Sequence record: OR637327.1
DNA length: 64,000 bases
Origin: Klebsiella phage iPHaGe-KPN-11i
Reading direction: 5' to 3' (one strand)
Shown: positions 4,334-53,416 of the stretch, piece by piece
How the letters are laid out: every line of letters begins with the position of its first letter
Position numbering within the stretch: position 1 is the stretch's first letter
Position numbers and translations under genes: made by a program
Notes under the pieces: generated by a model
Databases searched by the model: none
What the model saw: the letters and a program-made list of their open reading frames with translations, nothing else
Told to the model about the DNA's origin: nothing

Positions 4334-4575
4334 CTTCTACAGCTATTCAACAACAAACCATTGATCATGATGCTGAATTCGCACAACTGATCAAAGAACA
4401 TAACGCTTTTGCGGCTTCTCGCGTCAATGAAGAAAGCGAACAGACCCGCCGATCCCTCTGGGTTGCCATTTACCGCGAAGTGTTCAGCGAGAAATCCGCT
4501 AACAAACACACTCAGGCAGTTGATGCAGCAGATAAAGCGCTGGCAGCATACGATCGTAAGTTCGGAGCACAGTAA
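4330..4575 (+). CDS. hypothetical protein (81 aa)
   Basis: ORF, ATGA-coupled on both sides. Confidence 0.45.
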   Translation: MTSTAIQQQTIDHDAEFAQLIKEHNAFAASRVNEESEQTRRSLWVAIYREVFSEKSANKHTQAVDAADKALAAYDRKFGAQ

Positions 4576-4988
4576 TGGAACGGTCTGCTGGTATTCTCTT
4601 CCTGAATAACGGCAGCGTTTTAATGGGCCACGCAACCGAAACGCCTCATTGGGACATCCCAAAGGGGCATATCGAAAAAGGCGAAGAACCTATTCACGCT
4701 GCGATCCGTGAGTGCTTCGAAGAAACCGGAGTTCTTGTTGAACCGCACGAACTGGAAAGCCTCGGAAGACTGGATTATACCAGTAAAAAAGAGCTTTACT
4801 TATTCGTGTATAAAGGCAATAATTACCCCGAAGCCGATAAATGCTTCTGTGCGTCAACGTTCGTGAAGAACGGGCGAACCATCACAGAAATGGACGGTTT
4901 CAAATATGTTCCGTATAGCCAGATCCGCGATCATGCGCGTAAGACTATGGGACAACTTCTATCTAAACTTGTGGGATATACATCATGA
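4575..4988 (+). CDS. Nudix hydrolase
   Basis: Nudix box GHIEKGEEPIHAAIRECFEETGV (GX5EX7REUXEEXGU). Confidence 0.7.
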   Translation: MERSAGILFLNNGSVLMGHATETPHWDIPKGHIEKGEEPIHAAIRECFEETGVLVEPHELESLGRLDYTSKKELYLFVYKGNNYPEADKCFCASTFVKNGRTITEMDGFKYVPYSQIRDHARKTMGQLLSKLVGYTS

Positions 4989-5628: not shown

Positions 5629-5967
5629 ATGACTTACAAAGCTGGCGATCGTGTAGTAACCGTTAAGGATGGTAAGTTTGCCAAAGCCGGAACGCACGGA
5701 ATTGTCAATACCGACCGTGATGGTATTCTGGGTGTGGTTGGGCCGGATCATGGAAAATCAACATTATTCGAAACAGACAAAGTGCGTATCGCAACCGCTG
5801 CTGATCCTGGTTACTATGGAACCCGCGACGAGTTCGAAAGTGAAAAGGATCAGGAGATCGCAGAACTGAAAACTAAAGTTCATAACGCGCGGGTGTTGGC
5901 GGTGATTTGCCTTACCGTTGCGGCTATCAATACTGGTTTGTTGGGTTGGGTGGTGAATCATGTCTAA
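5629..5967 (+). CDS. hypothetical protein with C-terminal TM helix
   Basis: Hydrophobic C-terminus VLAVICLTVAAINTGLLGWVV. Confidence 0.5.
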   Translation: MTYKAGDRVVTVKDGKFAKAGTHGIVNTDRDGILGVVGPDHGKSTLFETDKVRIATAADPGYYGTRDEFESEKDQEIAELKTKVHNARVLAVICLTVAAINTGLLGWVVNHV

Positions 5968-6493
5968 AGATGATATTCCGGTTCATAACCGTATCCGCGA
6001 TCAGTTAACTTTTCGCAGTCGCGATCACGCGATCATGGTTGGGAGTTATCTGCATTGGTGGAAGAATAAAGATCTGGATCTGAATCCATCTTATCAGCGC
6101 CCCTATGTGTGGACGCAGAAAGAGCAAGATGCGTTTCTGACTACCCTGATCAGTGGTTTCCCTTGCGGTATCATCGCGATCGCGGTTGATAGCCAGTTCA
6201 ACGAAACTCACTGGGTAGAAGTCATCGACGGTAAACAACGCCTGACGACGATTATCAAAGTCTACGAAGGTGAAATTGGGATTCCTATGCCGGACGGTTC
6301 CCGTTTGTTCTGGGACGAAATGCCACGACACGAACAGCGAGCCTTTGAAAACATTTCATTACCTGCCCTGGGGCTGGATGAATGCACCAAAAAGGATCGT
6401 CTGGAATTCTTCATCAAACTGAACTTCGCGGGTGTGCCTCAATCTCAAGATCACATGAACCGCGTCCTGGAAATGTATAAGGCTGCAAAATGA
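5960..6493 (+). CDS. DUF262/ParB-like nuclease-domain protein
   Basis: DGKQRLTT motif (the DGQQR signature of DUF262/ParB-like NTPase folds). YQRPYVW upstream of it. Confidence 0.45.
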   Translation: MSKDDIPVHNRIRDQLTFRSRDHAIMVGSYLHWWKNKDLDLNPSYQRPYVWTQKEQDAFLTTLISGFPCGIIAIAVDSQFNETHWVEVIDGKQRLTTIIKVYEGEIGIPMPDGSRLFWDEMPRHEQRAFENISLPALGLDECTKKDRLEFFIKLNFAGVPQSQDHMNRVLEMYKAAK

Positions 6494-9607: not shown

Positions 9608-9810
9608 TGCAGCACGAAATCAAAACAGAGATTGACAAACGCACCTTCCTGGAAAAGAATAAAACGGTAACGCTGATGCATTACTCCACCAAAAACGGTT
9701 CGAGTGAGTTCTGGCGCGTTAACATTGACAGCAAAGAGAAACACCAGTCGATACCGTTCGACAATGAAAGCCTTGCTCGCGCTGTCTTCCAATCCCACGT
9801 TAAATTTTGA
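9604..9810 (+). CDS. hypothetical protein (68 aa)
   Basis: ORF, ATGA-coupled. Confidence 0.4.
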   Translation: MMQHEIKTEIDKRTFLEKNKTVTLMHYSTKNGSSEFWRVNIDSKEKHQSIPFDNESLARAVFQSHVKF

Positions 9811-9820
9811 GAATTATATT

Positions 9821-10972
9821 ATGAAATCTGTCGATATCGTTACCAGCATCAAAGCGCCGTCCCTGTTCATCTATCAACACGGCAATATGCGCTTCGCTCG
9901 CTCGAAGTTCTACAACTATAATTTCAACGTTGATACTGGTGAATTCGCTCGCTGGGGTGCAACATATTCCCACGATCCAGAATACGCACCATTCCCCGAA
10001 ATTCTCGATATCGAGATCACTACCAAATGCAACGGGCCAGCGGGTAAACTCTGCGGGTTCTGCTACAAGTCCAATAACCCGAACGGGTTCAACATGGATC
10101 TTGCCAACTTCAAAAAAATCATCGACAAAATGCCCTGGCTTACTCAATGCGCACTCGGTGCTGATGCACAGGGGCAAACAAACCCCGATATGTTCGATAT
10201 GATGGCGTATGCGCGTTCTAAAGGCATTGTGCCGAACCTTACCATTGCTGACGTATCAAAAGACGTTGCAGCGCGTTTAGCGGCGGTTGCTGGGGCTGTT
10301 GCGGTATCGGTTTATAAACACGCTGGTTTTGATGTCGCTTTCGACTCAGTAGCGAACCTGACAGAAGCCGGACAACAGCAAATCAACCTTCACTTCATGG
10401 TTAGCTCGAAAACCTATGATGATGCGTTTAACGTGGTTGACGCTGTGAAGAATGATCCGCGCCTGAAACAAGTAAACGCGATCGTGTTCCTGGGACTGAA
10501 ACAAAAGGGACGCGGTAAGAACTGGGACACAGTTACCCGCGAACAATATAAAAAACTTGTTGAATATTGCCTCGATTCTGGTGTAGGATTTGGATTCGAT
10601 AGCTGTTCAGCCCCCGCTTTCGTTGAAGCGATGGAGGGACACCCGAACTTCGAACAGTACAAGCAATACGCCGAAGACTGTGAAGCGACGATGTTTAGCT
10701 CTTACATCAATGAACGTGGTCAGTTCTTCCCTTGCTCGTTTACCGAACGCTGGGTTGAAGGTGGCTGGGAAGAAGGTCTGGATGTTCTGGAAGCCGAAGA
10801 TTTTGTGAAGGATATCTGGGAACACCCGAAAACAAAACAGTTCCGTAAAGAATTGACGGGCAACAAGGATCATAACGGTTGTCGTAACTGTCCGGCTTAT
10901 GCGGTATGTGGTAAAGATATGCGCGTACACAAAGCCCCTGAAACCGATGTATATGCAGTGGAGTTGAAATAA
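9821..10972 (+). CDS. Cys-rich putative Fe-S enzyme (radical-SAM/SPASM-like)
   Basis: N-terminal CNGPAGKLCGFCY (Cx8Cx2C) and C-terminal clusters CSAPAF...FPCSF...NGCRNCPAYAVCG. Non-canonical, so the assignment is tentative. Confidence 0.4.
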   Translation: MKSVDIVTSIKAPSLFIYQHGNMRFARSKFYNYNFNVDTGEFARWGATYSHDPEYAPFPEILDIEITTKCNGPAGKLCGFCYKSNNPNGFNMDLANFKKIIDKMPWLTQCALGADAQGQTNPDMFDMMAYARSKGIVPNLTIADVSKDVAARLAAVAGAVAVSVYKHAGFDVAFDSVANLTEAGQQQINLHFMVSSKTYDDAFNVVDAVKNDPRLKQVNAIVFLGLKQKGRGKNWDTVTREQYKKLVEYCLDSGVGFGFDSCSAPAFVEAMEGHPNFEQYKQYAEDCEATMFSSYINERGQFFPCSFTERWVEGGWEEGLDVLEAEDFVKDIWEHPKTKQFRKELTGNKDHNGCRNCPAYAVCGKDMRVHKAPETDVYAVELK

Positions 10973-19554: not shown

Positions 19555-19649
19555 ACACAGGTTATATCTTAATGTGTGTTATTGTTGTGATCGCGGGGCT
19601 GGCTGTGCTGGCTTACCGCCACTATACAGGTGATGAAAATGATTATTAA
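19551..19649 (+). CDS. small membrane protein (32 aa)
   Basis: TM segment ILMCVIVVIAGLAVLAY. ATGA overlap with the upstream gene. Confidence 0.2.
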   Translation: MNTGYILMCVIVVIAGLAVLAYRHYTGDENDY

Positions 19650-20157
19650 CAAGGAGAAAGAAACCGATTACACTCTTTCTCTTCTACGGGAATCTTTCTC
19701 GTATAATAAAGATACGGGTATCTTTACTTGTATAAACAAGAAAGCAAAACGATATTTTGGGAAACCTGCCGGAACGTTACATAACAGTGGGTATATCCGA
19801 TTAGGCATTCGTGTAGATGGAAAGCCAGTATTATATCTTGCTCAACGTGTTGCGTGGGCTTTTGTTACTGGAAGTTGGCCTGAAAATATGATTGACCATA
19901 AAGATACGATTAAACAAAACAACGCTTTTGATAATCTACGAGAGGCTACACGTTCAATCAATGCGTATAATTATCGACGGATAAGCAACGCAAATGCTTC
20001 TGGATATAGGGGTGTTCATGTTGATTCTCGTGGAAATCGTGTACGATATGGTGCATATTATGGGAAAACGAGATTAGGTACTTTTGACAGTGCCGAAGAA
20101 GCACACGAAGCATATATGAAATATGTTAAATCTATTCATGAGGTTGTGATTGAATGA
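19630..20157 (+). CDS. HNH homing endonuclease with AP2 domain
   Basis: HNH core LAQRVAWAF...DHKD..N and an AP2-like YRGVHVDSRGNRVRYGAYYG...GTFDSAEEA. Confidence 0.65.
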   Translation: MMKMIINKEKETDYTLSLLRESFSYNKDTGIFTCINKKAKRYFGKPAGTLHNSGYIRLGIRVDGKPVLYLAQRVAWAFVTGSWPENMIDHKDTIKQNNAFDNLREATRSINAYNYRRISNANASGYRGVHVDSRGNRVRYGAYYGKTRLGTFDSAEEAHEAYMKYVKSIHEVVIE

Positions 20158-22159: not shown

Positions 22160-22549
22160 ATGAAGATGCAGACGTTTAACGAAGTAACAGAACGCGATAC
22201 CGCGAGTAAAATTGATGCCTTTATTGGCACTTGCTTAATGTCTGTAACCTATATGCACAGCGCACATTTTGCGACTGGTTCATATTCACAGCATAAAGCA
22301 TTTGAAGGGTTTTACGAAGATATGCAGGATTTGGTTGATAAATTCACCGAAATCCATATAGGCATTACTGGTCGATACAAACCCGTATTAAAAACAGAAA
22401 ATGTGCTTGACACGGTCGCGTATCTCCGTAAAATAGCCGATGAAGCCAACGAAATCTATGATTCAGTAGATAGTTCATTGAAGAACGTCCTGGACGAGAT
22501 CAAAGGCTTGTGCTATCAAACGATTTACAAGCTGACAAAACTTTCTTAA
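22160..22549 (+). CDS. hypothetical protein (129 aa)
   Basis: ORF. Confidence 0.5.
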   Translation: MKMQTFNEVTERDTASKIDAFIGTCLMSVTYMHSAHFATGSYSQHKAFEGFYEDMQDLVDKFTEIHIGITGRYKPVLKTENVLDTVAYLRKIADEANEIYDSVDSSLKNVLDEIKGLCYQTIYKLTKLS

Positions 22550-22610
22550 AAAGAGTTTGACAAGCGAAAAAGTGATGATAGAATAACTATCGAATTGAAA
22601 CATAAACCCA

Positions 22611-23537
22611 ATGGAAATAATGATGAACTTAAACACTATCGTAAACAACCCGAAGAAAACCACACTGATCGCTCTGGGCGTAATCGCCGCTCTGTGGCTG
22701 GTTCCGAACTCGTACACTATCGTTCAGGATGGTACGGTAAAAACTCAAACCTTCATGGGTAAAGTTTCACCGAAGCCTGTTCTGCCTGGTTTCCACCTGG
22801 TAAATCCACTGGCTGATTTCGAGGTGTTCAACACCAAAGACATCGCAATGAAGTTCGACAAGTTGCAGGTTCCGTCCCAGGATAAATTCAAATCCACTGT
22901 GGATATGACCGTGATGTTACAGTTCGATGGTAGCAAAGCCCCGATCAACCGTATCAATGCGGGTAGTCAGGATCAGGCGCTGGATAAATATGTGACTGAA
23001 AAACTTCTGTCAACTGTCCGTGAGTTCGGTAAATCTGTACCGAAAGCACAGGATCTGTATAATGCAGAAGTTCAAAGCCAGCTACAGATCGCGATTCAGC
23101 AGGAAGTAGAAGAGTATGCCCGTCCTTACGGTTACACCGTGAAACAGGTATTCTTGCAGGATATCGACCTGCCGGAAGCGATCAAGAAGCAGGTTGAAAA
23201 CACGAAAATTCGTGAAGAACAGGTGAACGCAGAAAAAGCAGAACTTGCGCGTAAAGAGCAAATCGCTCAACAGGCGGTTGTTCAGGCAGTAGCCGACAAA
23301 GAAGCCCGTAGCAACGCTGCACAAGCTAACGAACGTGATGCTGATGCCCGTCTGTATGCGGCTAAGAAAGAAGCCGAAGCAAACGCCATTCTGCAACGCA
23401 CAATCACCCCAGAAATGATCCGCTGGAAAGAACTTGATGTTCAGCAGACCATCGCGGAAAAATATCAGGGCGGTGTACCTCAAACTGTCATGGGTTCTGA
23501 TTACGCTGGTAAAGTGATTTTCGATTCTCGTAAATAA
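22611..23537 (+). CDS. SPFH/band-7 (prohibitin-like) membrane protein
   Basis: N-terminal TM LIALGVIAALWLV, an SPFH-type core, and a long Ala/Glu/Lys-rich coiled-coil tail. Confidence 0.55.
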   Translation: MEIMMNLNTIVNNPKKTTLIALGVIAALWLVPNSYTIVQDGTVKTQTFMGKVSPKPVLPGFHLVNPLADFEVFNTKDIAMKFDKLQVPSQDKFKSTVDMTVMLQFDGSKAPINRINAGSQDQALDKYVTEKLLSTVREFGKSVPKAQDLYNAEVQSQLQIAIQQEVEEYARPYGYTVKQVFLQDIDLPEAIKKQVENTKIREEQVNAEKAELARKEQIAQQAVVQAVADKEARSNAAQANERDADARLYAAKKEAEANAILQRTITPEMIRWKELDVQQTIAEKYQGGVPQTVMGSDYAGKVIFDSRK

Positions 23538-23543
23538 GGGTTT

Positions 23544-23566
23544 AAAGCCCCCAGAGCGGGGGCTTT
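23544..23566 (+). terminator. rho-independent terminator
   Basis: aaagcccccagagcgggggcttt. Confidence 0.45.
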
Positions 23567-23586
23567 CTCCGAACGAGAATACTACA

Positions 23587-23685
23587 ATGAACATAAAACA
23601 GATCATCCTTACTATCTTCATTTCGCTATTCTTCGGCTTTATTGGCGGTTTTCTTGGTGTATTGGTGATTGCGTCTGTTTTATGA
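23587..23685 (+). CDS. small membrane protein (32 aa)
   Basis: Almost entirely hydrophobic: IILTIFISLFFGFIGGFLGVLVIASVL. Confidence 0.25.
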   Translation: MNIKQIILTIFISLFFGFIGGFLGVLVIASVL

Positions 23686-23710
23686 TTAACCTTTAAACGT
23701 GGAGCACGTT

Positions 23711-24766
23711 ATGAAACAATTTGATAAAGCTGTCGTAATTGGCAGATTCCAACCCTTCCATAATGGTCATGCAGCAATGGTGCGTAAAGCACTCGGAGAA
23801 GCAAAGATCGTTTACATCCTTCTGGGTTCAGCATATGCTTACCCTAACGTTTTAAACCCGCTGACGGCGCGTGAGCGTCAAACCATGATCTTCTCATGGC
23901 TTAATGCTAACTTCCCGATCGAAGATGTTGTTCGTGTTCAGTTTGAGAACATTCCAGATTATCTTTACAACGAAGAGAAATGGAAAACCTCTGTTCGTAC
24001 TGCTATCAGGGAAACCAAAGGCGACAAAATCGCTATCTACGGTTACGAAAAAGATGCAGGTTCATACTGGCTTAAAGCGTTCGGATGGACACACGTACCA
24101 GTTCCACCTGTCCAGATTAACGGCAAGGATCTATCAGCAACCGATCTTCGTCCGATTATCTTTAACCATAAAAACGGGTGGGATAAGCAACTGTTGCGCT
24201 TTGTTCCTCAAACAACAGTCAATTATATTGACAAATGGATGATGGAAGACACGTTCTGGCGTTTATTCTACGAATACGAGAAATGGGAGAGCGAATTGGA
24301 GAAATTCAAAAACTACCCATACCCCGACGCGCTGAACTGCTGCACGGGTGATAGCGTGGTTGTGTGTAACAATCACCTGCTAGTAATTCGTCGTAAGTTC
24401 GCCCCAGGTAAAGACGCGTTAGCCCTTCCCGGCGGACACAAAAACGCAAATGAAACGTTCCTGGATTGTGCGATCCGTGAACTGCTCGAAGAGGTGCGGA
24501 TCAAAGTTCCTGAAAAGGTTATCCGTGGTTCAATCCGCAATTCGATGTTGTTCGATCATCCGAAGCGTTCCGTACACTTCTCAAAACCGACTGTGGCGCA
24601 GTACATCAAGTTAGAGCCTAACAATGATGGAAGTCTGCCCCGTATTATGGGCGGTTCTGACGATGCGTTAGAGGCGTTCTGGATGCCCTTACATGAGGTC
24701 GTGCAACGACAAGGGGAATTCTTCGATGACCACTATCAAATCGTTGTAGCTTTCACGGGACTCTGA
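23711..24766 (+). CDS. bifunctional NMN adenylyltransferase / Nudix hydrolase (NadM-Nudix type)
   Basis: N-terminal GRFQPFHNGH nucleotidyltransferase motif. C-terminal Nudix box GGHKNANETFLDCAIRELLEEV. GGAG RBS. Confidence 0.7.
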   Translation: MKQFDKAVVIGRFQPFHNGHAAMVRKALGEAKIVYILLGSAYAYPNVLNPLTARERQTMIFSWLNANFPIEDVVRVQFENIPDYLYNEEKWKTSVRTAIRETKGDKIAIYGYEKDAGSYWLKAFGWTHVPVPPVQINGKDLSATDLRPIIFNHKNGWDKQLLRFVPQTTVNYIDKWMMEDTFWRLFYEYEKWESELEKFKNYPYPDALNCCTGDSVVVCNNHLLVIRRKFAPGKDALALPGGHKNANETFLDCAIRELLEEVRIKVPEKVIRGSIRNSMLFDHPKRSVHFSKPTVAQYIKLEPNNDGSLPRIMGGSDDALEAFWMPLHEVVQRQGEFFDDHYQIVVAFTGL

Positions 24767-24775
24767 TAAAAGATT

Positions 24776-24850
24776 AAAAAAGCCCTTGCGTTCGCGTGAG
24801 GGCTTTTGTATTATATACACATACCGCATGAATAATGAAAAGGAAGAAAA
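24776..24850 (+). promoter_or_regulatory. terminator-promoter-leader cassette (copy f)
   Basis: Hairpin agcccttgcgttcgcgtgagggct. Then TTTTGTATTATATACACATACCGCATG...AAAAGGAAG RBS. Confidence 0.5.
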
Positions 24851-25045: not shown

Positions 25046-25314
25046 TTAAACGTCCTTACTGCCTCGTAAACCGTCCGATCTGTGCGGGTGGTTTACCCGT
25101 CAACTGCTGGCAGTTGGTTGAAACAGGTGAAGCGTTCCTGAATAAACGCGGTGATAAAGTATTCGTCTATGGTGTGGACTCGATCGAGAATGAAACGATG
25201 GTGATCACCGACGAGAAAACAAAAGAAAAATATACGTTGACTTCCGACCACGATTGCCGTAACTTCAACGTGTACTGGAAATCTAATGAAGACTTTGAAG
25301 GAATTAAATCATGA
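25042..25314 (+). CDS. hypothetical protein (90 aa)
   Basis: ORF, ATGA-coupled. Confidence 0.5.
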   Translation: MIKRPYCLVNRPICAGGLPVNCWQLVETGEAFLNKRGDKVFVYGVDSIENETMVITDEKTKEKYTLTSDHDCRNFNVYWKSNEDFEGIKS

Positions 25315-25868
25315 AAGTAGCAACCCTTAGCGGTATATCTGATGTAAAATGTCGTATGTCGCTGGAACCCGGTAATCGTGTAGGAATCAAACACACGGGT
25401 TCAGTAGGTACGAAGAATTTTACTTTGCAATCTGTTGCGCGTGATAAAAACGATATGGTTTATGTGTTTGTTACAGAACCGATGTCAAATAATATCCGTC
25501 AAACACTGGTGATGAAACTGGGAACCAAAGATCCGGCAATGCTGATCGGTGGAACTGTAGAGCCTGTTACTGTTGCGAGCGTCACACATAAGGGCATTGA
25601 ATGCGCCGTAGACGGCAACGGCAAACTGTCCTACGAAGGGACTAAACGCCAGAATGTCGATCGTCCGGTTGTTGTTGGTGATGTGTTTACGTCAGAACGC
25701 CGTGAATACCATGTTGAATACATAGCACAGGATGGTTCTCTGGTTTGTCGCATGTACTCCCGTAAGAGCACAGACGATAACAAATACATGGGATTGACCA
25801 TCATTGATGGACGTGATGCGATCCTGCTGGATTCACTGAATGTTAAAATTAAGTTTGCATACTCATGA
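25311..25868 (+). CDS. hypothetical protein (185 aa)
   Basis: ORF, coupled. Confidence 0.5.
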   Translation: MKVATLSGISDVKCRMSLEPGNRVGIKHTGSVGTKNFTLQSVARDKNDMVYVFVTEPMSNNIRQTLVMKLGTKDPAMLIGGTVEPVTVASVTHKGIECAVDGNGKLSYEGTKRQNVDRPVVVGDVFTSERREYHVEYIAQDGSLVCRMYSRKSTDDNKYMGLTIIDGRDAILLDSLNVKIKFAYS

Positions 25869-26116
25869 TTCACACAATTAGCGTTATTATGGGTGATGTC
25901 GTAAACATCAATGGACACGATTACTACGTAGCGGAAATCAATACAAAGGGTAATCGTGAGATCTTGGAACTGGACATTGTAAGGCCGTCCGAAGGGCAAT
26001 CCCTTACAATCGAAGTGGTTCATAACACGAACACAGGGGAAGACGTAGTGAAGCCAGTTCTGGCCCGTCTTCCGGTGTTCTACTGTGAAAAGTCAAAACG
26101 TTGGAAAATGAAATGA
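25865..26116 (+). CDS. hypothetical protein (83 aa)
   Basis: ORF, coupled. Confidence 0.5.
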   Translation: MIHTISVIMGDVVNINGHDYYVAEINTKGNREILELDIVRPSEGQSLTIEVVHNTNTGEDVVKPVLARLPVFYCEKSKRWKMK

Positions 26117-26508
26117 ATCCGAAAGATTTAACTGATGTGAAAGTGGGTGATACCCTTTACGATCCTGGCGAAAGGTTATACAATACCCGTAAAACAGCAA
26201 ACCCTCGCGAATTTCACGTTCTAAAGGTTGCGCGTCAATATCTGTATGCATCCACTGATAAAGACGCTGATTTGAAAAGCTGGAACATCGAGAAAGTCGA
26301 TCGTAAGACTGGATTGACTTCTGGTAGTGGCGGGGGCTGGGGCGGATTTTATATGTATCGCAGCGAAGCGGTATACAAAGAAATCCAGTATCGTGCTGAA
26401 CTGAGTGAAAAGATCCGAAAAGAGTTCGGTTCTCACGCTGTTGTTGTTCCTGAAATCACTACCGCTGAACTGCGCGGTATCGCAAAAACCCTGGGGGTTA
26501 AATTTTGA
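26101..26508 (+). CDS. hypothetical protein (Gly-rich loop SGSGGGWGGF)
   Basis: ORF. Start may be at 26113. Confidence 0.45.
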   Translation: MENEMNPKDLTDVKVGDTLYDPGERLYNTRKTANPREFHVLKVARQYLYASTDKDADLKSWNIEKVDRKTGLTSGSGGGWGGFYMYRSEAVYKEIQYRAELSEKIRKEFGSHAVVVPEITTAELRGIAKTLGVKF

Positions 26509-27491
26509 AAACTGTAATGGAAACCGTGTTTGGTTCTCACCTGTATGGACTGAACACACCGACAAGCGATAAAGACTATAAAGGGATCTTTCTCCCGCAC
26601 CCGCGCGATATTCTCCTGGGGAAAGCCCCAAAGACTATCGACACCAGCACGGGCGATAAAAGCTCTAAAAACACCGTAGACGACGTTGATCGTCAGTTGT
26701 ATAGTCTGACTAAGTTTATCAGCCTTGCGTGTGATGGTGATACCGTAGCGCTAGATATGCTTCACGCTTCGGATGACAAGCTGATCGCTAACTCTGAAAT
26801 CTGGCAATATATCCGCGCTAACCGCTGGCGTTTTTACACCACTGAACTAACTGGCCTGTTCGGTTATGTTCGTAAGCAAGCCGCGAAATATGGCGTGAAG
26901 GGTTCCCGACTGGCTGCACTGCGCGAAGTGTACGATGTGTTGCAAAAAACCGACAACTCGCACTATGATGAAAATGCTACGTCGCTGGTCAATACAAAAG
27001 TCAGTGACATTGTGGATAAACTACCAACCAATGAATTCTGTCGTGCTATCCTGCACTATAGCGAAAAGGGCGGTATGCAGAACTTCTATGAAGTGCTGGG
27101 GCGTAAATTCCAGTATACGATCACCATAGCGGAAATGAAAAAGTCAGTGTATAAACTCTGGGATGAATACGGAGAACGCGCACGACAAGCAGAAGCCAAC
27201 AACGGGATCGACTGGAAAGCATTAAGTCACGCGTTGCGCGGTGGTATGCAGTTGATCCAGATTTACAAAGATGGTGATATCGTTTATCCTCTGCCTGATA
27301 GCGCATTCCTGAAACTGGTTAAATCTGGCGGCGTACCGTTCACAACCGTACAGGAAAAGCTGGAAGAAGTCATGGGTGAAGTCGAACGCCTTGCAGCGAT
27401 TTCAACATATCCGAAAGAAGTTGATCGCGAATTCTGGAACGATTTCATCGAACGCGTATACCGTGATCATGTTGTGGGGTATTACAAATGA
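26505..27491 (+). CDS. putative nucleotidyltransferase (Pol-beta superfamily)
   Basis: GSHLYGLNTPTSDKDYKGIF (GS-x9-D-x-D) followed by a downstream acidic residue in DGDTVALDMLH. Confidence 0.4.
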   Translation: MKTVMETVFGSHLYGLNTPTSDKDYKGIFLPHPRDILLGKAPKTIDTSTGDKSSKNTVDDVDRQLYSLTKFISLACDGDTVALDMLHASDDKLIANSEIWQYIRANRWRFYTTELTGLFGYVRKQAAKYGVKGSRLAALREVYDVLQKTDNSHYDENATSLVNTKVSDIVDKLPTNEFCRAILHYSEKGGMQNFYEVLGRKFQYTITIAEMKKSVYKLWDEYGERARQAEANNGIDWKALSHALRGGMQLIQIYKDGDIVYPLPDSAFLKLVKSGGVPFTTVQEKLEEVMGEVERLAAISTYPKEVDREFWNDFIERVYRDHVVGYYK

Positions 27492-27730: not shown

Positions 27731-27990
27731 TGACTGATGTTATTTTGAAAGTTAAAGATGTTGTACTGGGCGATACCAAAAACCCAGACGCGGTTACACT
27801 GGAACAGGCTGTTGTTCAGATCATGCGCGATAGCCTCCGCCTGGAAGTTACTGAACGCACCGAAAGCAATTACACGGGCGGAATTGATGGTCGCCAGTTG
27901 TACGAAGATAACAAACACGTTAATGTAACCCTATGGGCGGACATTGACGAAAACTCATACAAAATTGACGAGATTGATTTTGACGTATGA
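27721..27990 (+). CDS. hypothetical protein (89 aa)
   Basis: ORF, coupled. Confidence 0.45.
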   Translation: MALMTDVILKVKDVVLGDTKNPDAVTLEQAVVQIMRDSLRLEVTERTESNYTGGIDGRQLYEDNKHVNVTLWADIDENSYKIDEIDFDV

Positions 27991-28910
27991 AAATAATTGA
28001 CCTCTGTGCTGGTGTGGGCGGGGTTCGATTAGGATTTGATAAGGCATTCGGCGGTGTCGAATGCCTTTTAACGTCTGAAATCGACAAGTTCGCACAGCAA
28101 ACATATATCGAAAACTGGGGCGATGATAACCTACAGGGTGATCTATTCGCCATTGATGAAAACAAAGTGCCGGATCATGATATCCTGCTGGCGGGGTTCC
28201 CGTGTCAGGCGTTCAGTAAAGCCGGATTGAAACTGGGCTTTGACGATGTGCGCGGTACGGTGTTCTTTGAAATCCTCCGCATTATACGCGCTAAAAAGCC
28301 CCGTGTACTGTTCTTTGAGAACGTGCCTGAACTGCTAACCCATGACAAGGGGAAGACGTTTAAAACGATTTACGGGCTTCTGGAGGCCGAAGGATATAAC
28401 GTATTCTATCAACGCCTGAACACAAAGGATTTCGGACTACCCCAAAGACGGGAACGCGTGTTTATTGTCTGCTTCCTGGATGATGTATTCTTTTCGTTTC
28501 CGGTTCCCCCGCGTACCCCTACACGCGTAGGCGACATCCTCGAAGATGCTGATGATTCATTCACCCTCTCAGATAACGCATGGAAAGGCTTTAGAGAGCG
28601 TAAGGAACGAAATAAGGCAAACGGTAAGGGTTTCGGTTATCAGGCCGTCACAAGCGATTCTGCGCACACTGGGACTATCACTGCAAATTACTATAAAGAT
28701 GGTGTTCAATGTCTGGTATTGCAGGAAGGAAAGAACCCCCGAAGACTTACTCCCCGTGAGTGTTTTCGTTTGCAGGGTTTCCCAGATTCGTTTATTATCA
28801 ACAAAAGCAAGATGCAAGCGTATAAACAAGCAGGTAATTCTGTTTCAATACCAGTCATCGAGGCTATAGCAAAACAAATCAAGAAGGTGTTATGTCACAC
28901 AACGGACTAA
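27987..28910 (+). CDS. DNA (cytosine-5)-methyltransferase
   Basis: Motif I DLCAGVGG, motif IV GFPCQAFS, motif VI ENV. The C-terminal target-recognition region ends ...QAGNSV. Confidence 0.8.
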   Translation: MKIIDLCAGVGGVRLGFDKAFGGVECLLTSEIDKFAQQTYIENWGDDNLQGDLFAIDENKVPDHDILLAGFPCQAFSKAGLKLGFDDVRGTVFFEILRIIRAKKPRVLFFENVPELLTHDKGKTFKTIYGLLEAEGYNVFYQRLNTKDFGLPQRRERVFIVCFLDDVFFSFPVPPRTPTRVGDILEDADDSFTLSDNAWKGFRERKERNKANGKGFGYQAVTSDSAHTGTITANYYKDGVQCLVLQEGKNPRRLTPRECFRLQGFPDSFIINKSKMQAYKQAGNSVSIPVIEAIAKQIKKVLCHTTD

Positions 28911-29428
28911 GAACAATCGAAGAAGAACAGAAAGGAATTGACGAATTCCTTAAAACTGTTTCTGTTGATATACAAACGGGGACAATTATACGAACGTCAC
29001 ACAAACGTTCTGACTTGATCGGAAAGGAAATAGGTTCGAAGATTAAAGGAGGATATACCCGCGTTTATTTCAAAAGCAAAGGATATCTACGTCATCGAAT
29101 CATCTACTACGTTGCAACCGGAAAACTGCCTGATGTGATTGATCACAAAAATGGTGTTGAGGCTGGCGACGGGATTTATAACTTGCGTGAAGCGGATCAA
29201 TCCCGAAACTGTCAGAACCGGACTAAACGAAGAGTAGCAACCAGTCGATTCAAGGGTGTATGTGTACGTGATCAACCTACTGGAATACGTTACATTGCAC
29301 AGATAAAGATTGACGGCAAGGTTAAACATATCGGTTCCTATCGTGACGAATACGAGGCTGCAAAAGCATACGATCGGGAAGCGATAAAACATTTTGGTAA
29401 ATTTGCAAAATTAAACATTGCATACTGA
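28892..29428 (+). CDS. HNH homing endonuclease with AP2 domain
   Basis: HRIIYYV...DHKNG HNH core and an AP2-like FKGVCVRDQPTGIRYIAQIKIDGKVKHIGSYRDEYEAA. Confidence 0.7.
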   Translation: MSHNGLRTIEEEQKGIDEFLKTVSVDIQTGTIIRTSHKRSDLIGKEIGSKIKGGYTRVYFKSKGYLRHRIIYYVATGKLPDVIDHKNGVEAGDGIYNLREADQSRNCQNRTKRRVATSRFKGVCVRDQPTGIRYIAQIKIDGKVKHIGSYRDEYEAAKAYDREAIKHFGKFAKLNIAY

Positions 29429-29436
29429 CCAGGATA

Positions 29437-31388: not shown

Positions 31389-33635
31389 ATGTCAATAACA
31401 AATATCGAATTCAAAAACGCTGTATCGAAGCCAACCCCGACAAACCACGTTTTCGTGTGTGACGTATCCGGTTCAATGTATAACGAACTGCCTAAGATCC
31501 GTAAACACCTGAAAGCAAATCTGGCGAGTCTGGTTAAACAGGATGACACTGTTTCGATCCTGTACTTCTCCAGCAAAGGCGATTACGGCACGGTGTTCCG
31601 TGGTGAGAAGGTTAGCAATGTCTCTGACCTGTCTAACATCTGCGCGGCTATCGACCGTTACCTGAAACCTACTGGTTGTACTGGCTTCGTTGAGCCGTTG
31701 AATCTGGCTGCGGAAATCGCTACAGATCTGCAATCCGAAAACGGCAACCTGAACAGCCTGATCTTCCTGACAGACGGTTATGATAACTGCTGGCGTACCG
31801 ATGACATCCTGAAAGCGTGTGCGGTTCTGCCACTGACTTTCAACAGTATCGCGTTCCTGGAATACGGTTATTACGTGAATCGTCCTCTGCTGGAAAAAAT
31901 GGCAGAAGCAACCAACGCATTACACAAATTCGTTGAAGGTTTCGACGCATACGAACCAGCATTTGCCGAAATCATCACTGCGCAAACTTCTGCACGTATC
32001 GAAGTCAAAGTTGCTGACGCTACCCATGCGATCTACCTGGACGAAGGGCGCGTGTATGTCCTGAACGCTGCAAACGGTGTTGTGCTGGTTCCAGAACACA
32101 TCAAAAACATCTGGGCGCTGGGTGACAACGCGATCAATGATGTTGACGGCTTCGATCCAAACATCGCCAGTGAACAGCAAGTTCTGTATGTCGTGCTTTA
32201 TCATGCACTACACACAATGAACCCTGATCTGGCATGGAAAGTGCTTCAAAAGCTGGGTGATGTCCGTCTGATCAAAGCGTATGACAACTGCTTTACCAAA
32301 CAGGACTACTCCAACGCAAAAGACCTGATTGCACAGGCTGTTGTAGATCCGTCACAGCGTTTTGTTGATGGTATTGATTACAACATGGTTCCAGACGAAA
32401 ACGCGTTCACTCTGGTTGATGCGCTCGAACTGCTGGCACAAACTGACACAGTGATCGACCTGTCTTCTGAGCACTGGGCGTACAACCGCACAGGCCGTCA
32501 GACTGTACAGAAAGAAGATGATACACTGGATCAACTGTCTGAACAGATCGCAAACGCTGCAACCCCAGAAGAACGTAAAGCACTGGCGGCGCAAATGGTA
32601 GCGCATGAAGTATGGGTTCCGAAGTTCACCCAGACTACAACCAAAGTATCGGTTAAACATCTGGTGGGTAACAGTTCCCGTCCTAACATTTCCATCAACA
32701 CGGATCTGGAAGGGTATGTGACTATCCCAGAAAGCAAACAGAAAGAATTCGGTCTGCCGGAAAAAATCGAAACTAAGCAGGTGCGTAACTTCACCATCGT
32801 TAAAGATGGTATCGTGAACGTTAAAGTTCTGCCGCTGGAAACCGATATTCCGACACTGAAAAACCTTCGTGCTTCTGGCCTGACTATCAAGCCGCTCGAA
32901 AAAATCGGTGATGATCGTATGTCTGTTCTGGTAGACTTTACCTCTCTGCCTCTGGTTAACCGTGGCATGACTCGCGGGTTAAGCGGTAAAGAGTTCGTGA
33001 CTGATAACGTGCGTCTGGAAATCCTGAAAGGCCGTCAGAAGGTTATGAAGTTCTTCCGTGACAACGCGATCGGACTGCGCAACGCAGAAGGGCTGAAACA
33101 GCGCTTTGGTGAGGCTGCGGGTGAATGGCTGTCTGAACAGGGTATTCGTGATTACGGGTTCTCTCCGAAGGTTGAGCGCACAGAATCGACTGATGTTTAC
33201 ATGTCGAAAGAACTGAACGTGAAAATCAAGGGTGTTTCCTCCCTTCCTGCTGTAGCGGCTACCGTCGCGAAGCGTGAAGAAGGTAAGAAGAAACTGAACA
33301 ACGGCGACCTGATTATCCTGTGGGCTTACGATCAGGTGAAATCTGAACTGGATGCGCTTGACAAAGATCAGGTAGTCGAGTATCTTGATAAGCAGACAAA
33401 GGCAACGATTCAGGAAGTCCGTAAACTGAATGCCCGTTTAAGTCGCGTAATGTACGGTGTTGTAGTAGCCCATGCATGGTTCGCGGATCTGGACTTCGAA
33501 GAAACCAAAGTTTCTATCGCTGCGAAAGATATTCTTCCGAAAGAAGATAATATTCCGTCCGATTTCTGGAAAGTCTGGGAAACCACATCATTCGAATGTG
33601 AAATCGTCCTGGAAGAAAAAGAAGTCAAAATCTAA
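31389..33635 (+). CDS. von Willebrand factor A (vWA) domain protein, 748 aa
   Basis: N-terminal MIDAS motif VFVCDVSGSM (DxSxS) with downstream T and D residues. Long C-terminal extension of unknown fold. Confidence 0.6.
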   Translation: MSITNIEFKNAVSKPTPTNHVFVCDVSGSMYNELPKIRKHLKANLASLVKQDDTVSILYFSSKGDYGTVFRGEKVSNVSDLSNICAAIDRYLKPTGCTGFVEPLNLAAEIATDLQSENGNLNSLIFLTDGYDNCWRTDDILKACAVLPLTFNSIAFLEYGYYVNRPLLEKMAEATNALHKFVEGFDAYEPAFAEIITAQTSARIEVKVADATHAIYLDEGRVYVLNAANGVVLVPEHIKNIWALGDNAINDVDGFDPNIASEQQVLYVVLYHALHTMNPDLAWKVLQKLGDVRLIKAYDNCFTKQDYSNAKDLIAQAVVDPSQRFVDGIDYNMVPDENAFTLVDALELLAQTDTVIDLSSEHWAYNRTGRQTVQKEDDTLDQLSEQIANAATPEERKALAAQMVAHEVWVPKFTQTTTKVSVKHLVGNSSRPNISINTDLEGYVTIPESKQKEFGLPEKIETKQVRNFTIVKDGIVNVKVLPLETDIPTLKNLRASGLTIKPLEKIGDDRMSVLVDFTSLPLVNRGMTRGLSGKEFVTDNVRLEILKGRQKVMKFFRDNAIGLRNAEGLKQRFGEAAGEWLSEQGIRDYGFSPKVERTESTDVYMSKELNVKIKGVSSLPAVAATVAKREEGKKKLNNGDLIILWAYDQVKSELDALDKDQVVEYLDKQTKATIQEVRKLNARLSRVMYGVVVAHAWFADLDFEETKVSIAAKDILPKEDNIPSDFWKVWETTSFECEIVLEEKEVKI

Positions 33636-49921: not shown

Positions 49922-50169
49922 TTGATTGTATACCCGTATTTGTTGGTTTCTGCATTCAATGCAATAGCCAGCTTATTCAGATCCCCAATATCACCCTCAA
50001 GGTCTAAATCAATACTGTCAATCTTCGCATCATTATAAAGATCAGTACCCGCGTATGCATCAATTTCTACGATTTTCACGTTGTGTTCTCGAATGAGATT
50101 CATTGATGCTTCTGGGATACGACGCATTTCGAACTGAAACGTTCTTACTTCGATACCGTCACGCATCAC
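49918..50169 (-). CDS. hypothetical protein (83 aa)
   Basis: ORF, coupled. Confidence 0.45.
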   Translation of the reverse strand: MMRDGIEVRTFQFEMRRIPEASMNLIREHNVKIVEIDAYAGTDLYNDAKIDSIDLDLEGDIGDLNKLAIALNAETNKYGYTIK

Positions 50170-50393
50170 GCTCTCTCCAGACGGGTTGTTACTTCACGGT
50201 TATAGATCCGCGCATACTGGCGAATGTCTTCGTTATCGCTGGTGTTCTTCGCGATATATGCATCATCTTCGGTTTCGAATGATGCTGGGTTGCGATCGTC
50301 GTTTGACAGATACAGTTTACCGAAGATATCTTTCTTTACAGTCTGTACCCCGACAAACATCACAAAATCTTTTTCTGTGTTAATTGAACTCAT
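50166..50393 (-). CDS. hypothetical protein (75 aa)
   Basis: ORF, coupled. Confidence 0.45.
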   Translation of the reverse strand: MSSINTEKDFVMFVGVQTVKKDIFGKLYLSNDDRNPASFETEDDAYIAKNTSDNEDIRQYARIYNREVTTRLERA

Positions 50394-50394
50394 G

Positions 50395-50685
50395 TTAAGC
50401 CCTCAAACCAAAGCTACGTTTTTTGATGACGGTGACATTATGAACACCTCTGTTATTGCAAGTGCTGGTTTTCAGAGTTTCGGCTTTACGCGCACCCAGA
50501 ACCAGAGTTTTAACAGGAGTCACAGGAGCAGCGATAACCACAACAGCAGCCCAACGTGCGCCAACAGCTTTATCAGTACCCAGGTCGATTACAGCAGAGG
50601 TATTTTTACCAGCAGCCAGAACATACGCACGGGCTTCACGACGAGTGTTGAAGCAAACCAGTTCTTTCATGTTGTAAGTTTTCAT
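50395..50685 (-). CDS. hypothetical protein (96 aa)
   Basis: ORF preceded by a candidate promoter. Confidence 0.45.
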   Translation of the reverse strand: MKTYNMKELVCFNTRREARAYVLAAGKNTSAVIDLGTDKAVGARWAAVVVIAAPVTPVKTLVLGARKAETLKTSTCNNRGVHNVTVIKKRSFGLRA

Positions 50686-50727
50686 AATGTCATCCTCAAA
50701 GTTAAGTTGTATTGCCTACGTGGTTAA

Positions 50728-50756
50728 AGATACAAGAAAGCCGGATTCAGTGCAAG
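50728..50756 (-). promoter_or_regulatory. sigma70-like promoter (minus strand)
   Basis: TTGCAC, 17-nt spacer, TATCTT on the minus strand, about 40 nt upstream of the ATG at 50685. Confidence 0.3.
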
Positions 50757-50770
50757 CATTATTTTGCATA

Positions 50771-50806
50771 AAAACGAAAAAAGCCGCCACCTTTCGGCAA
50801 CGGCTT
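50771..50806 (-). terminator. rho-independent terminator (minus strand)
   Basis: gccgttgccgaaaggtggcggc imperfect hairpin followed by TTTTTTCGTTTTT on the minus strand. Confidence 0.4.
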
Positions 50807-50811
50807 CATTT

Positions 50812-51093
50812 TTAATACTTTTCTTCTGGCTGGAACACCGCACGACACGCCCACATAGAGGCTTCTTTCAGTCGGTCTTTCGCCTTTTGGATTTGATGGA
50901 TACGTTCAAGCATCGCATCGAGTTCTTCGGTAGTGAATGAATCGGTATCTGATACCGCGTAATCACTTGAATACTCTTCATCAAGTTCTTTGAAGATTTC
51001 GCCCAGGGCAACTTCTGCGGCCTTGATGCGGTTTACTTTGTCGATCTTTTCTTTCGAGTGGGGCTTATAGCCCTGTACGTCTTCAATCGCCAT
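50812..51093 (-). CDS. hypothetical protein (93 aa)
   Basis: ORF, ATGA-coupled with the GrcA homolog. Confidence 0.45.
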   Translation of the reverse strand: MAIEDVQGYKPHSKEKIDKVNRIKAAEVALGEIFKELDEEYSSDYAVSDTDSFTTEELDAMLERIHQIQKAKDRLKEASMWACRAVFQPEEKY

Positions 51094-51459: not shown

Positions 51460-52029
51460 TTACCTTTCTACGACATAATAACGTAACGGGTTGATATGGA
51501 ACGCCAGCATTGCACGATCCAGCCCGTTAGGGTCAGTTACTTCCTGTTTCAGTTTCCACCCGCAATACACGCGTAAGCAGAACTGAACCTTTCCGACTTT
51601 AAGCCACGGTTTGAAGACATAAAGCCCCCATGCCGAATCATTCCACATCAACAGATAACCGTGACGCGAAGGATCGGAACCACCTTCTGTTTTCGGGTTG
51701 CCCTTCCAGGCGAAGTCTGACTGTGCTTCACGCCCTAAGACGTGATAAGCGAAGTTGTACGCTTTGTTACGCCACAACCAGCCTACACGTTGCGCATACA
51801 CACCCAGATCGCCTAAGTGATACCGGATGTTAGCCCAACGCCGGATATGTCCACCATCACCATCGATCGGGTTATCGAATGTTTCCATCCAACGGAACCC
51901 TTTAGGTAAGTGTCCGGTTTCGTCACTGTAGAACGGAACCACGAAAGGAGCCAGCAGAATAGCCAGAACACCCGAAAGAATATCCAGGGGAACCAGTACA
52001 AGCCAGCTTGCGTATTTCAAAAAGCGCAT
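51460..52029 (-). CDS. membrane-anchored protein (189 aa)
   Basis: N-terminal [25 protein letters not shown]. Trp-rich soluble domain. Confidence 0.45.
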
Positions 52030-52071
52030 ATGCTTCTCCAGAAAAAAGGCTATCCGAAGATAGCCTGTTGA

Positions 52072-52491
52072 TTAACGAACTGCTTTGATATACTTATACG
52101 CTTCTGCGAACTCTTCTTCCAGAGCTTCGTTACAGAACGGGATACCTTCTGCTTTAAATCCACCAGTGATAAGGTACTGGATAAAGAATACAGAAGAATC
52201 TATAGAGATCAACTGATGGTTCGTAGGTTCGATATCAGTTCGACGAACGATATTGACGATCGACCAGTCAAAGAATCGTCGATGATATTCGTGTTTGCTA
52301 TTCACCTGCGGTGATGCAAAGAAACCATCAACAGAATACGCATCGAACGCTTTACGATATTCTTTATCGAAATCAGTGATTTCTTCGGTAAACAGTTTCA
52401 TCAATTTACCGTTGATTTCTTTTTCAGTTGATGCAGCGACGATTTCGCGAATTTTTGGGGTTAACTCAAACAGCTTTTGAAGACCTTTCAT
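52072..52491 (-). CDS. hypothetical protein (139 aa)
   Basis: ORF. Confidence 0.45.
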   Translation of the reverse strand: MKGLQKLFELTPKIREIVAASTEKEINGKLMKLFTEEITDFDKEYRKAFDAYSVDGFFASPQVNSKHEYHRRFFDWSIVNIVRRTDIEPTNHQLISIDSSVFFIQYLITGGFKAEGIPFCNEALEEEFAEAYKYIKAVR

Positions 52492-52640
52492 ATTTTTCTC
52501 TTTTAAATTTGTGGGCTGGAAGTTTCTTTACTTCACCCCGCATTCCGGGGAACCTATTACCGGATACCAACAGAGCCTATCGCATACGATAAGGTTGCAT
52601 ATTCCGAACCATTTAACGGCATTGCGCTACGCACCCGAAT

Positions 52641-52716
52641 TGGAGCAGGTGAAGGGACTCGAACCCTCAACAATCTGGATGGAAACCAGATATTCTACCA
52701 ATTGAACTACACCTGC
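52641..52716 (-). tRNA. tRNA-Gly (anticodon UCC)
   Basis: Reverse complement GCAGGTG...CACCTGC-T-CCA folds as a cloverleaf. T-loop GGGTTCGAGTCCC. Anticodon loop TTTCCAT. CCA is encoded. Confidence 0.8.
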
Positions 52717-52721
52717 GTATT

Positions 52722-52798
52722 TGGTGGCCCCTGCTGGATTCGAACCAGCAACCGCGCGATTATGAGTCACCCGCTCTAACCAATTAAGCTAAAGGGCC
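52722..52798 (-). tRNA. tRNA-Met or tRNA-Ile2 (anticodon CAU)
   Basis: Reverse complement GGCCCTT...AGGGGCC-A-CCA. T-arm GCTGGTTCGAATCCAGC. Anticodon loop CTCATAA. G1-C73 is paired, so not an initiator. Confidence 0.8.
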
Positions 52799-52805
52799 GG
52801 AATTT

Positions 52806-53057
52806 TTAGAACTGTTTGCGATAGATTTCGCGAACCAGCGGATCAACATCTTTCGCGTACTTACATACGTCTTCGAACTGGACGATGTACGCCATGACTT
52901 CATCGGCACGGGATTTCAGTTTACCCTGATGCGCGTCAATGATCATTGCTGCCATTACGTCAATACGCGCTGGGGCTTCCAGAATTTCGCCTTTGTCGAA
53001 CAGCTTTTTGGATTTGCTGACGGTATCAGCGATAATTGCTTGAATTGATTTAGCCAT
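52806..53057 (-). CDS. hypothetical protein (83 aa)
   Basis: ORF. Confidence 0.45.
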   Translation of the reverse strand: MAKSIQAIIADTVSKSKKLFDKGEILEAPARIDVMAAMIIDAHQGKLKSRADEVMAYIVQFEDVCKYAKDVDPLVREIYRKQF

Positions 53058-53059
53058 TT

Positions 53060-53416
53060 TTAGATCTCGTAGATTGCCTGGATTGCTTTGTAATGTGCGG
53101 AAACGTATTTTGTTTCCTTCTCTTTTGCTTCTTTTTCGGAAATGTAACCCGCAACCAGATCAGGGTCAGGAACATTCGCCATGTGAGCGCTTGGCAGTGG
53201 AATATATTTACCCAGGATTCGTTCTGCCGCTTCTGCTGGAACGTCTACGCCTACAGAAACAACTTTACCATAAAAAGGTTGTTCCCCGTGCTGGCGTACA
53301 CCAACCACGATACCAGATTCAGATTTGATTTCGGAACCCTGCGGACGCGCAGTAGCTTCGATGATCACATATTCGCCGGATGCTTTTACTTTCAGTTCAG
53401 ACATTTCTTTACTCAT
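53060..53416 (-). CDS. co-chaperonin, T4 gp31-like (GroES functional analogue)
   Basis: SGEYVII (T4 VGEYVIL) and C-terminal AHYKAIQAIYEI (T4 CHYKAIPCLYK). Similar length. Confidence 0.7.
   Translation of the reverse strand: MSKEMSELKVKASGEYVIIEATARPQGSEIKSESGIVVGVRQHGEQPFYGKVVSVGVDVPAEAAERILGKYIPLPSAHMANVPDPDLVAGYISEKEAKEKETKYVSAHYKAIQAIYEI

Follow-up and report, generated by a model that had tools for sequence, protein, structure and literature searches.

The DNA analyzed here, a stretch of 64,000 nucleotides of Klebsiella phage iPHaGe-KPN-11i (record OR637327.1; hereafter, the window), carries at 23711..24766 on the + strand a gene whose sequence supports assignment of its product to the NadM-Nudix, or NatV-type, enzymes. 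Our favored interpretation, to which we give a probability of about 85%, is that this salvage enzyme works with a distantly encoded phage nicotinamide phosphoribosyltransferase (Nampt) as the pathway called NARP2, rebuilding NAD+ and offsetting NADase defences. The proposal is carried by the domain architecture of the protein, its intact catalytic motifs, its full-length homology, and the presence of the partner gene in near-identical phages. Both the fusion gene and the pathway have already been annotated and published for the RB16/GAP161 phage group, and the finding is therefore correct but ordinary: it adds little that is new and confirms the published NARP2 pair in T4-like phages of Klebsiella, Cronobacter, and Enterobacter.

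The window derives from a Pseudotevenvirus, a member of the RB16/GAP161 group of the Straboviridae. It shares 98% identity with Cronobacter phage GAP161 and with Klebsiella phage phi1_146002, and over its whole length it is collinear, in reverse orientation, with ~37.3–101.2 kb of GAP161. The 2.5 kb around the fusion gene match 175 phage records; here the identity is 98.6% with phi1_146002 and 98.0% with Cronobacter phage vB_CsaM_GAP161. At the protein level, the fusion is 100% identical to its counterpart in phi1_146002 (CDS0209), 86% identical to that of RB16, and ~73% identical to those of Slopekvirus-like Klebsiella phages (Matisse, PMBT1, and relatives), and NadM-Nudix homologues are found in 468 phage records. 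Its orthologues are GAP161_126, the RB16 NadM-Nudix protein, and KVP40 NatV; GAP161_126, the RB16 protein, and CDS0209 represent the same gene (stated protein identity, 98–100%). From RB16 onward this gene has carried the label “bifunctional NMN adenylyltransferase/NUDIX hydrolase”; given the existing annotation of GAP161_126, its identification is more than a decade old. In many GenBank records, however, it is labeled “hypothetical protein” or, by derivation from pharokka and PHROG, “cytidyltransferase.” These labels, together with “nicotinate phosphoribosyltransferase” for the GAP161 partner, conceal the pathway.

The features of the fusion gene and its flanks are as follows.

23701..23704, + strand: GGAG Shine–Dalgarno/ribosome-binding site; 6 nt separate it from the ATG at 23711 (sequence reading)
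23711..24766, + strand: coding sequence, an ATG-started ORF of 351 aa, predicted bifunctional NMN adenylyltransferase/Nudix (ADP-ribose pyrophosphatase-type)
23711..24280, + strand: NMN adenylyltransferase domain (HIGH-superfamily nucleotidyltransferase), ~aa 1–190 (PDB search)
23759..23770, + strand: HNGH, the (H/T)xGH ATP-binding motif, aa 17–20, within GRFQPFHNGH (regex check)
24134..24151, + strand: SATDLR, the second nucleotidyltransferase signature (SxTxxR), aa 142–147 (regex check)
24341..24763, + strand: Nudix hydrolase domain, ~aa 211–351 (Pfam and alignment with the Nudix halves of 2qjo and 2qjt)
24434..24502, + strand: Nudix box GHKNANETFLDCAIRELLEEVRI, aa 242–264 (regex check)
24778..24807, + strand: terminator-like hairpin of the intrinsic type, with a stem of 13 pairs and then a T-rich tail (consensus scan and sequence)

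An in-frame GTG at 23699 was considered as the start codon and rejected because it overlaps the GGAG and is used in none of the annotated homologues, all of which begin at the ATG. The hairpin lies directly 3′ of the stop codon of the fusion gene and is a putative intrinsic terminator. Every gene around the fusion ORF is on the + strand of the window, and a consensus scan places a strong σ70-like site (TTGACA-16-TAGAAT with an upstream TG) at 22557–22584, before the upstream SPFH gene, where it may serve as an expression signal.

The two-part nature of the 351-aa protein is evident from Pfam, in which CTP_transf_like (Cytidylyltransferase-like; aa 9–63, 6.6e-8) and NUDIX (aa 215–336, 5.6e-14) both score above the gathering threshold. 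Together with the regex checks, these matches bear out the first-pass annotation, which had described a fusion of an N-terminal (H/T)xGH motif and a C-terminal Nudix box. The HNGH motif is invariant with that of KVP40 NatV and aligns with the same motif of 2qjo and 2qjt, while the counterparts of SATDLR at the aligned place are SATDFR in NatV, SSTAIR in 2qjo, and NATEFR in 2qjt. The Nudix box retains an intact catalytic REx2EE. At its penultimate position, where the consensus has G, the window protein has R, as does Synechocystis slr0787, and KVP40 NatV has N.

Homology extends over the entire protein. A PDB search returned Synechocystis slr0787 (2qjo; aa 4–349, E = 2e-53) and Francisella tularensis NadM-Nudix (2qjt; aa 3–346, E = 1e-45), and KVP40 NatV aligns at 40–42% identity over 98% of the length (E = 3e-73), so that the NatV-like architecture previously read from the letters alone also holds in full-length alignment to all three proteins. 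All seven NCBIfam PRK05379 models (“bifunctional NMN adenylyltransferase/Nudix hydrolase”) match, six of them essentially over their full length and the best at 1.6e-73. The best score, 247.9 bits, falls short of the equivalog cut-off of 397, which lowers the automatic naming and not the homology, since the models are tuned to bacterial subclades and the match is full length. With phrog_395, labeled “cytidyltransferase,” matching at 2.6e-96, the full-length matches range in E-value from 1e-53 to 1e-96, far beyond chance.

Could the N-terminal domain instead belong to the cytidylyltransferases that serve cell-wall or lipid metabolism? The name of phrog_395, copied into many GenBank records, and the Pfam family name “Cytidylyltransferase-like” would suggest so, but both are generic superfamily names, and this reading, which had been set out beforehand as the one that would overturn the assignment, is refuted by the sequence comparisons and has in our view next to no chance of being correct. 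When aa 1–195 alone were compared with the PDB, the domain grouped with NMNATs only (2qjt, 1.6e-22; 2qjo, 1.1e-18; 1f9a, 1.2e-8; NadR, 4e-4), the archaeal NMNATs 1f9a and 1ej2 among them. No cytidylyltransferase, of the TagD/CCT type or otherwise, was found with this 195-aa query in the PDB at E ≤ 1, and none of the TagD/CCT type among the NCBIfam matches of the protein, where NMNAT families rank first and the sole other matches are weak ones to CoaD and RibF.

Among known systems, a close likeness is to KVP40 NatV (KVP40.0162), the Nmnat of NARP2, which shares the two-domain architecture, a similar length (341 aa in NatV versus 351 aa here), and identical GRFxPFHNGH, SATDxR, and GGHK...ETFLD.AIREL.EE motifs. 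The two come from different hosts and from different genera of the Straboviridae, Schizotequatrovirus for KVP40 and Pseudotevenvirus here, and whereas the activity of NatV has been demonstrated, the window protein is a putative enzyme known from sequence; its activities are predicted from homologues at 30–42% identity. With the bacterial NadM-Nudix proteins (slr0787, PDB 2qjo; F. tularensis, PDB 2qjt/2r5w) it shares the DYLY...W segment and, following the Nudix box, FD.P.RS. Those enzymes, however, serve cellular housekeeping NAD metabolism, and the NCBIfam cut-offs, below which the window protein scores, were built on their clades.

NARP2 is defined as the KVP40-type combination of Nampt and Nmnat. 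NatV has been demonstrated to be an Nmnat and forms NAD+ jointly with the KVP40 Nampt, and 94% of phages with a KVP40-type Nampt also encode an Nmnat (Osterman et al., bioRxiv 10.1101/2024.02.11.579819). Table S2 of the same study classes the Nampt proteins of GAP161 (JN882287), RB16, and KP15 as “Nmnat-associated,” that is, as NARP2. NadV has been reported in every NadM-containing phage (Iyer et al. 2022, PMC9503650), and nadV in 50 of the 50 NatV-like phages then known (Lee et al. 2017, as relayed by PMC7139368).

In the window itself no Nampt was found by tblastn with the GAP161 protein as query (best E = 1.8, noise). The first-pass annotation had likewise seen no NadV/Nampt gene there and had supposed that the partner lies elsewhere in the genome, and in GAP161 and phi1_146002 it does. 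GAP161_237 (149632–151065 in GAP161), annotated as “putative nicotinate phosphoribosyltransferase,” contains NAMPT_N and NAPRTase domains (Pfam) and matches human NAMPT over its full length (E ~1e-85) and a Xanthomonas homologue at 1e-105; the domains and the human match identify it as a nicotinamide phosphoribosyltransferase. The phi1_146002 Nampt (CDS0039, 25168–26601) occupies the syntenic site, between the rnlB/srd cluster and dam/nrdC. Because NadM-Nudix and Nampt lie ~73 kb apart on opposite strands in GAP161, they do not form an operon. By analogy with these near-identical relatives, the Nampt partner of the present phage is expected at a similar distance, ~73 kb off and outside the window.

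Within this phage group the two genes track each other: at ≥60% identity, 176 phage records carry NadM-Nudix and 179 carry Nampt. In other lineages the genes are adjacent: in Yersinia phage fHe-Yen9-04 (NadM-Nudix 50019–51086, Nampt 51733–53178) and in Rhizobium phage RHph_I1_18 (NadM-Nudix 130632–131645, Nampt 131701–132954). This adjacency supports a functional link between them. In KVP40, too, the partner Nampt is encoded in the genome of NatV itself.

The search for Nampt or Adps homologues beyond the window, which had also been suggested, was run in the relatives and succeeded for Nampt but not for Adps. Neither Prs/Adps, PnuC, nor NadR appears in the GAP161 annotation, and Pfam detected no Prs/Adps, PnuC, NadR, Macro, NADAR, or ART in 20 ORFs of the window or in 10 large ORFs that are unannotated in GAP161; PRPP must therefore be derived from the host. 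What sets NARP1 apart, a Prs-like Adps beside Namat, was thus absent from the GAP161 annotation and from these 30 unannotated ORFs, and what marks NARP2, an Nmnat homologous to KVP40 NatV, is present. NARP1 (Adps and Namat) and NARP3 (PnuC and a NadR-like protein) reach the same end result, NAD+ rebuilt during infection, but by other chemistry and other proteins, and the Nampt of the GAP161 group belongs to the “Nmnat-associated,” not the Adps-associated, clade.

Taken together with the literature, these observations suggest the following scheme. Nampt/NadV would convert nicotinamide and host PRPP to NMN, from which the N-terminal domain of the fusion, using ATP, would form NAD+ and PPi. The C-terminal Nudix domain would most likely hydrolyze ADP-ribose to AMP and ribose-5-phosphate, and host Prs could then convert ribose-5-phosphate to PRPP, closing the loop, such that both products of an NADase would be recycled to NAD+. 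A different description of the Nudix half has it cleave NAD+ and thereby regulate the NAD+ level (Iyer et al. 2022, PMC9503650). Rebuilding of NAD+ during infection would in turn offset host defences that destroy it (Thoeris, DSR, SIR2-HerA, SEFIR). In this scheme, the enzymatic activities, the Nudix substrate, the closure of the loop through host Prs, and the anti-defence role are drawn by analogy from homologues and published work. The precedent for the anti-defence role is that the KVP40 Nampt/Nmnat pair, whether coexpressed or knocked in, overcomes NAD+-depleting defences (Osterman et al.). Were the same to hold here, such defences may give Klebsiella strains less protection from phages of this group, a point of relevance to host range in phage therapy.

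A role in general auxiliary metabolism has also been considered, in which a larger NAD+ pool would favor replication in nutrient-poor or NAD+-limited hosts irrespective of any NADase. This was the view of KVP40 NadV/NatV before 2024, and it is compatible with an anti-defence role. KVP40 NARP2 raises NAD+ in cells without a defence system as well, corroborating earlier KVP40 work (Osterman et al.), and anti-defence may thus not be the sole or the original role of the pathway. In addition, the genes lie among nucleotide-metabolism and early genes (tk, nrd, dam, rnlB) and in no recognizable anti-defence island. Against this, KVP40 NARP2 rescued phages from NAD+-depleting defences, and NARP2 is described as metabolically costly, which speaks for some selective benefit, the evasion of defences for example. 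We therefore regard a purely metabolic role as possible but rather unlikely.

A different emphasis would make the Nudix half primary, as a hydrolase of ADP-ribose, ADPR-derived immune signals, or NAD caps, with the adenylyltransferase secondary or regulatory. The Nudix box of the fusion is indeed intact, and phage Nudix enzymes of the NudE clade hydrolyze ADPR, FAD, and Ap3A and, in vitro, NAD-RNA caps. But both nucleotidyltransferase signatures are intact too, and invariant with respect to those of KVP40 NatV, which is active, and a Nudix-only role leaves the strict co-occurrence of NadM and NadV in phages unexplained. This arrangement seems to us very improbable, and NAD+ reconstitution by NARP2 remains the preferred reading. 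A related and speculative notion, to which we give little credence, is that in this lineage the Nudix half, perhaps with the NudE-like enzyme described below, might return ADPR set free by defence NADases to the pathway, by way of ribose-5-phosphate and host Prs, and might also destroy ADPR-derived immune signals such as the gcADPR of Thoeris. If this were true, a single protein would both quench immune signaling and rebuild NAD+.

The window encodes a second, stand-alone Nudix protein.

4575..4988, + strand: stand-alone Nudix hydrolase, orthologue of T4 NudE (e.1), a 137-aa ORF (Pfam NUDIX, 7.5e-16)
4665–4733 (nt), + strand: strict-consensus Nudix box of this ORF, aa 31–53 (regex check)

Its product matches phrog_1185 at 8e-57 and T4 NudE at 40% identity (E = 1e-13, 82% coverage), and the GAP161 counterpart, GAP161_171, is annotated “NudE nudix hydrolase,” a name also used in RB16. 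It shares with T4 NudE the PHROG and the canonical Nudix box, and differs from it in a C-terminus that is shorter in the alignment. Two main clades of Nudix domains are distinguished in phages, with T4 NudE and NadM as their respective types (Iyer et al. 2022, PMC9503650). NudE-type homologues were counted in 1263 phage records, most of them from T4-like phages that infect Escherichia, Klebsiella, or Shigella, against 468 records for NadM-Nudix, and the second Nudix is thus not tied to NadM. The first-pass annotation had listed the two together and had asked whether the second, 19 kb away, is an ADP-ribose or NADH pyrophosphatase. The Nudix ORF itself is confirmed by its Pfam match and strict box, but a specific tie to the NAD+ pathway is not upheld: judged by its homologues, this is a general T4-type accessory enzyme and not a dedicated member of NAD+ reconstitution. 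Among the substrates that T4 NudE hydrolyzes are ADPR, FAD, and Ap3A (Xu et al. 2002, cited by PMC9503650), and the enzyme is reported in the literature to decap NAD-RNA in vitro; the window enzyme may contribute to ADPR turnover.

The immediate surroundings of the fusion gene offer no further NAD+-related function: a Pfam search of its immediate neighbors for NAD/ADPR-linked domains returned only SPFH/Band 7 and DUF5856. The upstream neighbors rI, rI.-1, and the SPFH gene are common to the window, GAP161, RB16, and phi1_146002. The DUF5856 protein (rI.-1) is encoded at 22160..22549 (+) and adjoins the lysis-inhibition gene rI. The SPFH/Band 7 protein (22611..23537, +; 7.6e-18) is wrongly called a “lipoprotein” in pharokka records, and its stop codon is followed at ~23544–23568 by a GC-rich hairpin without a T-run. 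Between the SPFH and NadM-Nudix genes lies a strongly hydrophobic ORF of 32 aa, MNIKQIILTIFISLFFGFIGGFLGVLVIASVL (23587..23685, +). At the DNA level it is 100% conserved in GAP161, which leaves it unannotated, and in phi1_146002 it is CDS0210. It could encode a small membrane peptide with a link to the SPFH protein.

On the downstream side, 1.3 kb from NadM-Nudix, a phage ProQ C-terminal-like protein (26101..26508, +; 1e-19) overlaps the start of an RlaP-type nucleotidyltransferase of the Pol-beta superfamily, a homologue of NrdC.11 (26505..27491, +); the two may act as a pair in RNA repair or RNA binding. Farther along come a C-5 cytosine DNA methylase (27987..28910, +; 3e-92) and then an HNH_3 endonuclease ORF (28892..29428, +) that is likely a homing-endonuclease insertion, as the segment containing it, 28888–29433, does not align to GAP161. 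Another mobile-endonuclease polymorphism is represented by a second HNH_3 ORF (19630..20157, +; 2.8e-14), where the segment 19649–20154 is unaligned to GAP161.

Several other genes of the window and its relatives deserve mention. A stand-alone GmrSD_N/DUF262 (ParB-like) protein of 177 aa (5960..6493, +; 7.7e-20) lacks the nuclease half and is an odd cargo for a phage whose DNA is modified or methylated. The early-gene region contains a radical SAM protein with a SPASM domain (9704..10972, +; GAP161_155), and a protein of 748 aa (31389..33635, +; GAP161_109, annotated as hypothetical) carries a von Willebrand factor A domain in its N-terminal part. Genes for tRNA-Gly(UCC) and tRNA-Met(CAU) adjoin each other at 52641..52798 (−). 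Outside the window, the hypothetical protein GAP161_224 (L004:6740-7573, −) has a Zeta-toxin-like kinase domain (5.3e-8), and GAP161_058, whose homologue reaches the right end of the window, shows a weak DnaJ match below the Pfam cut-off.
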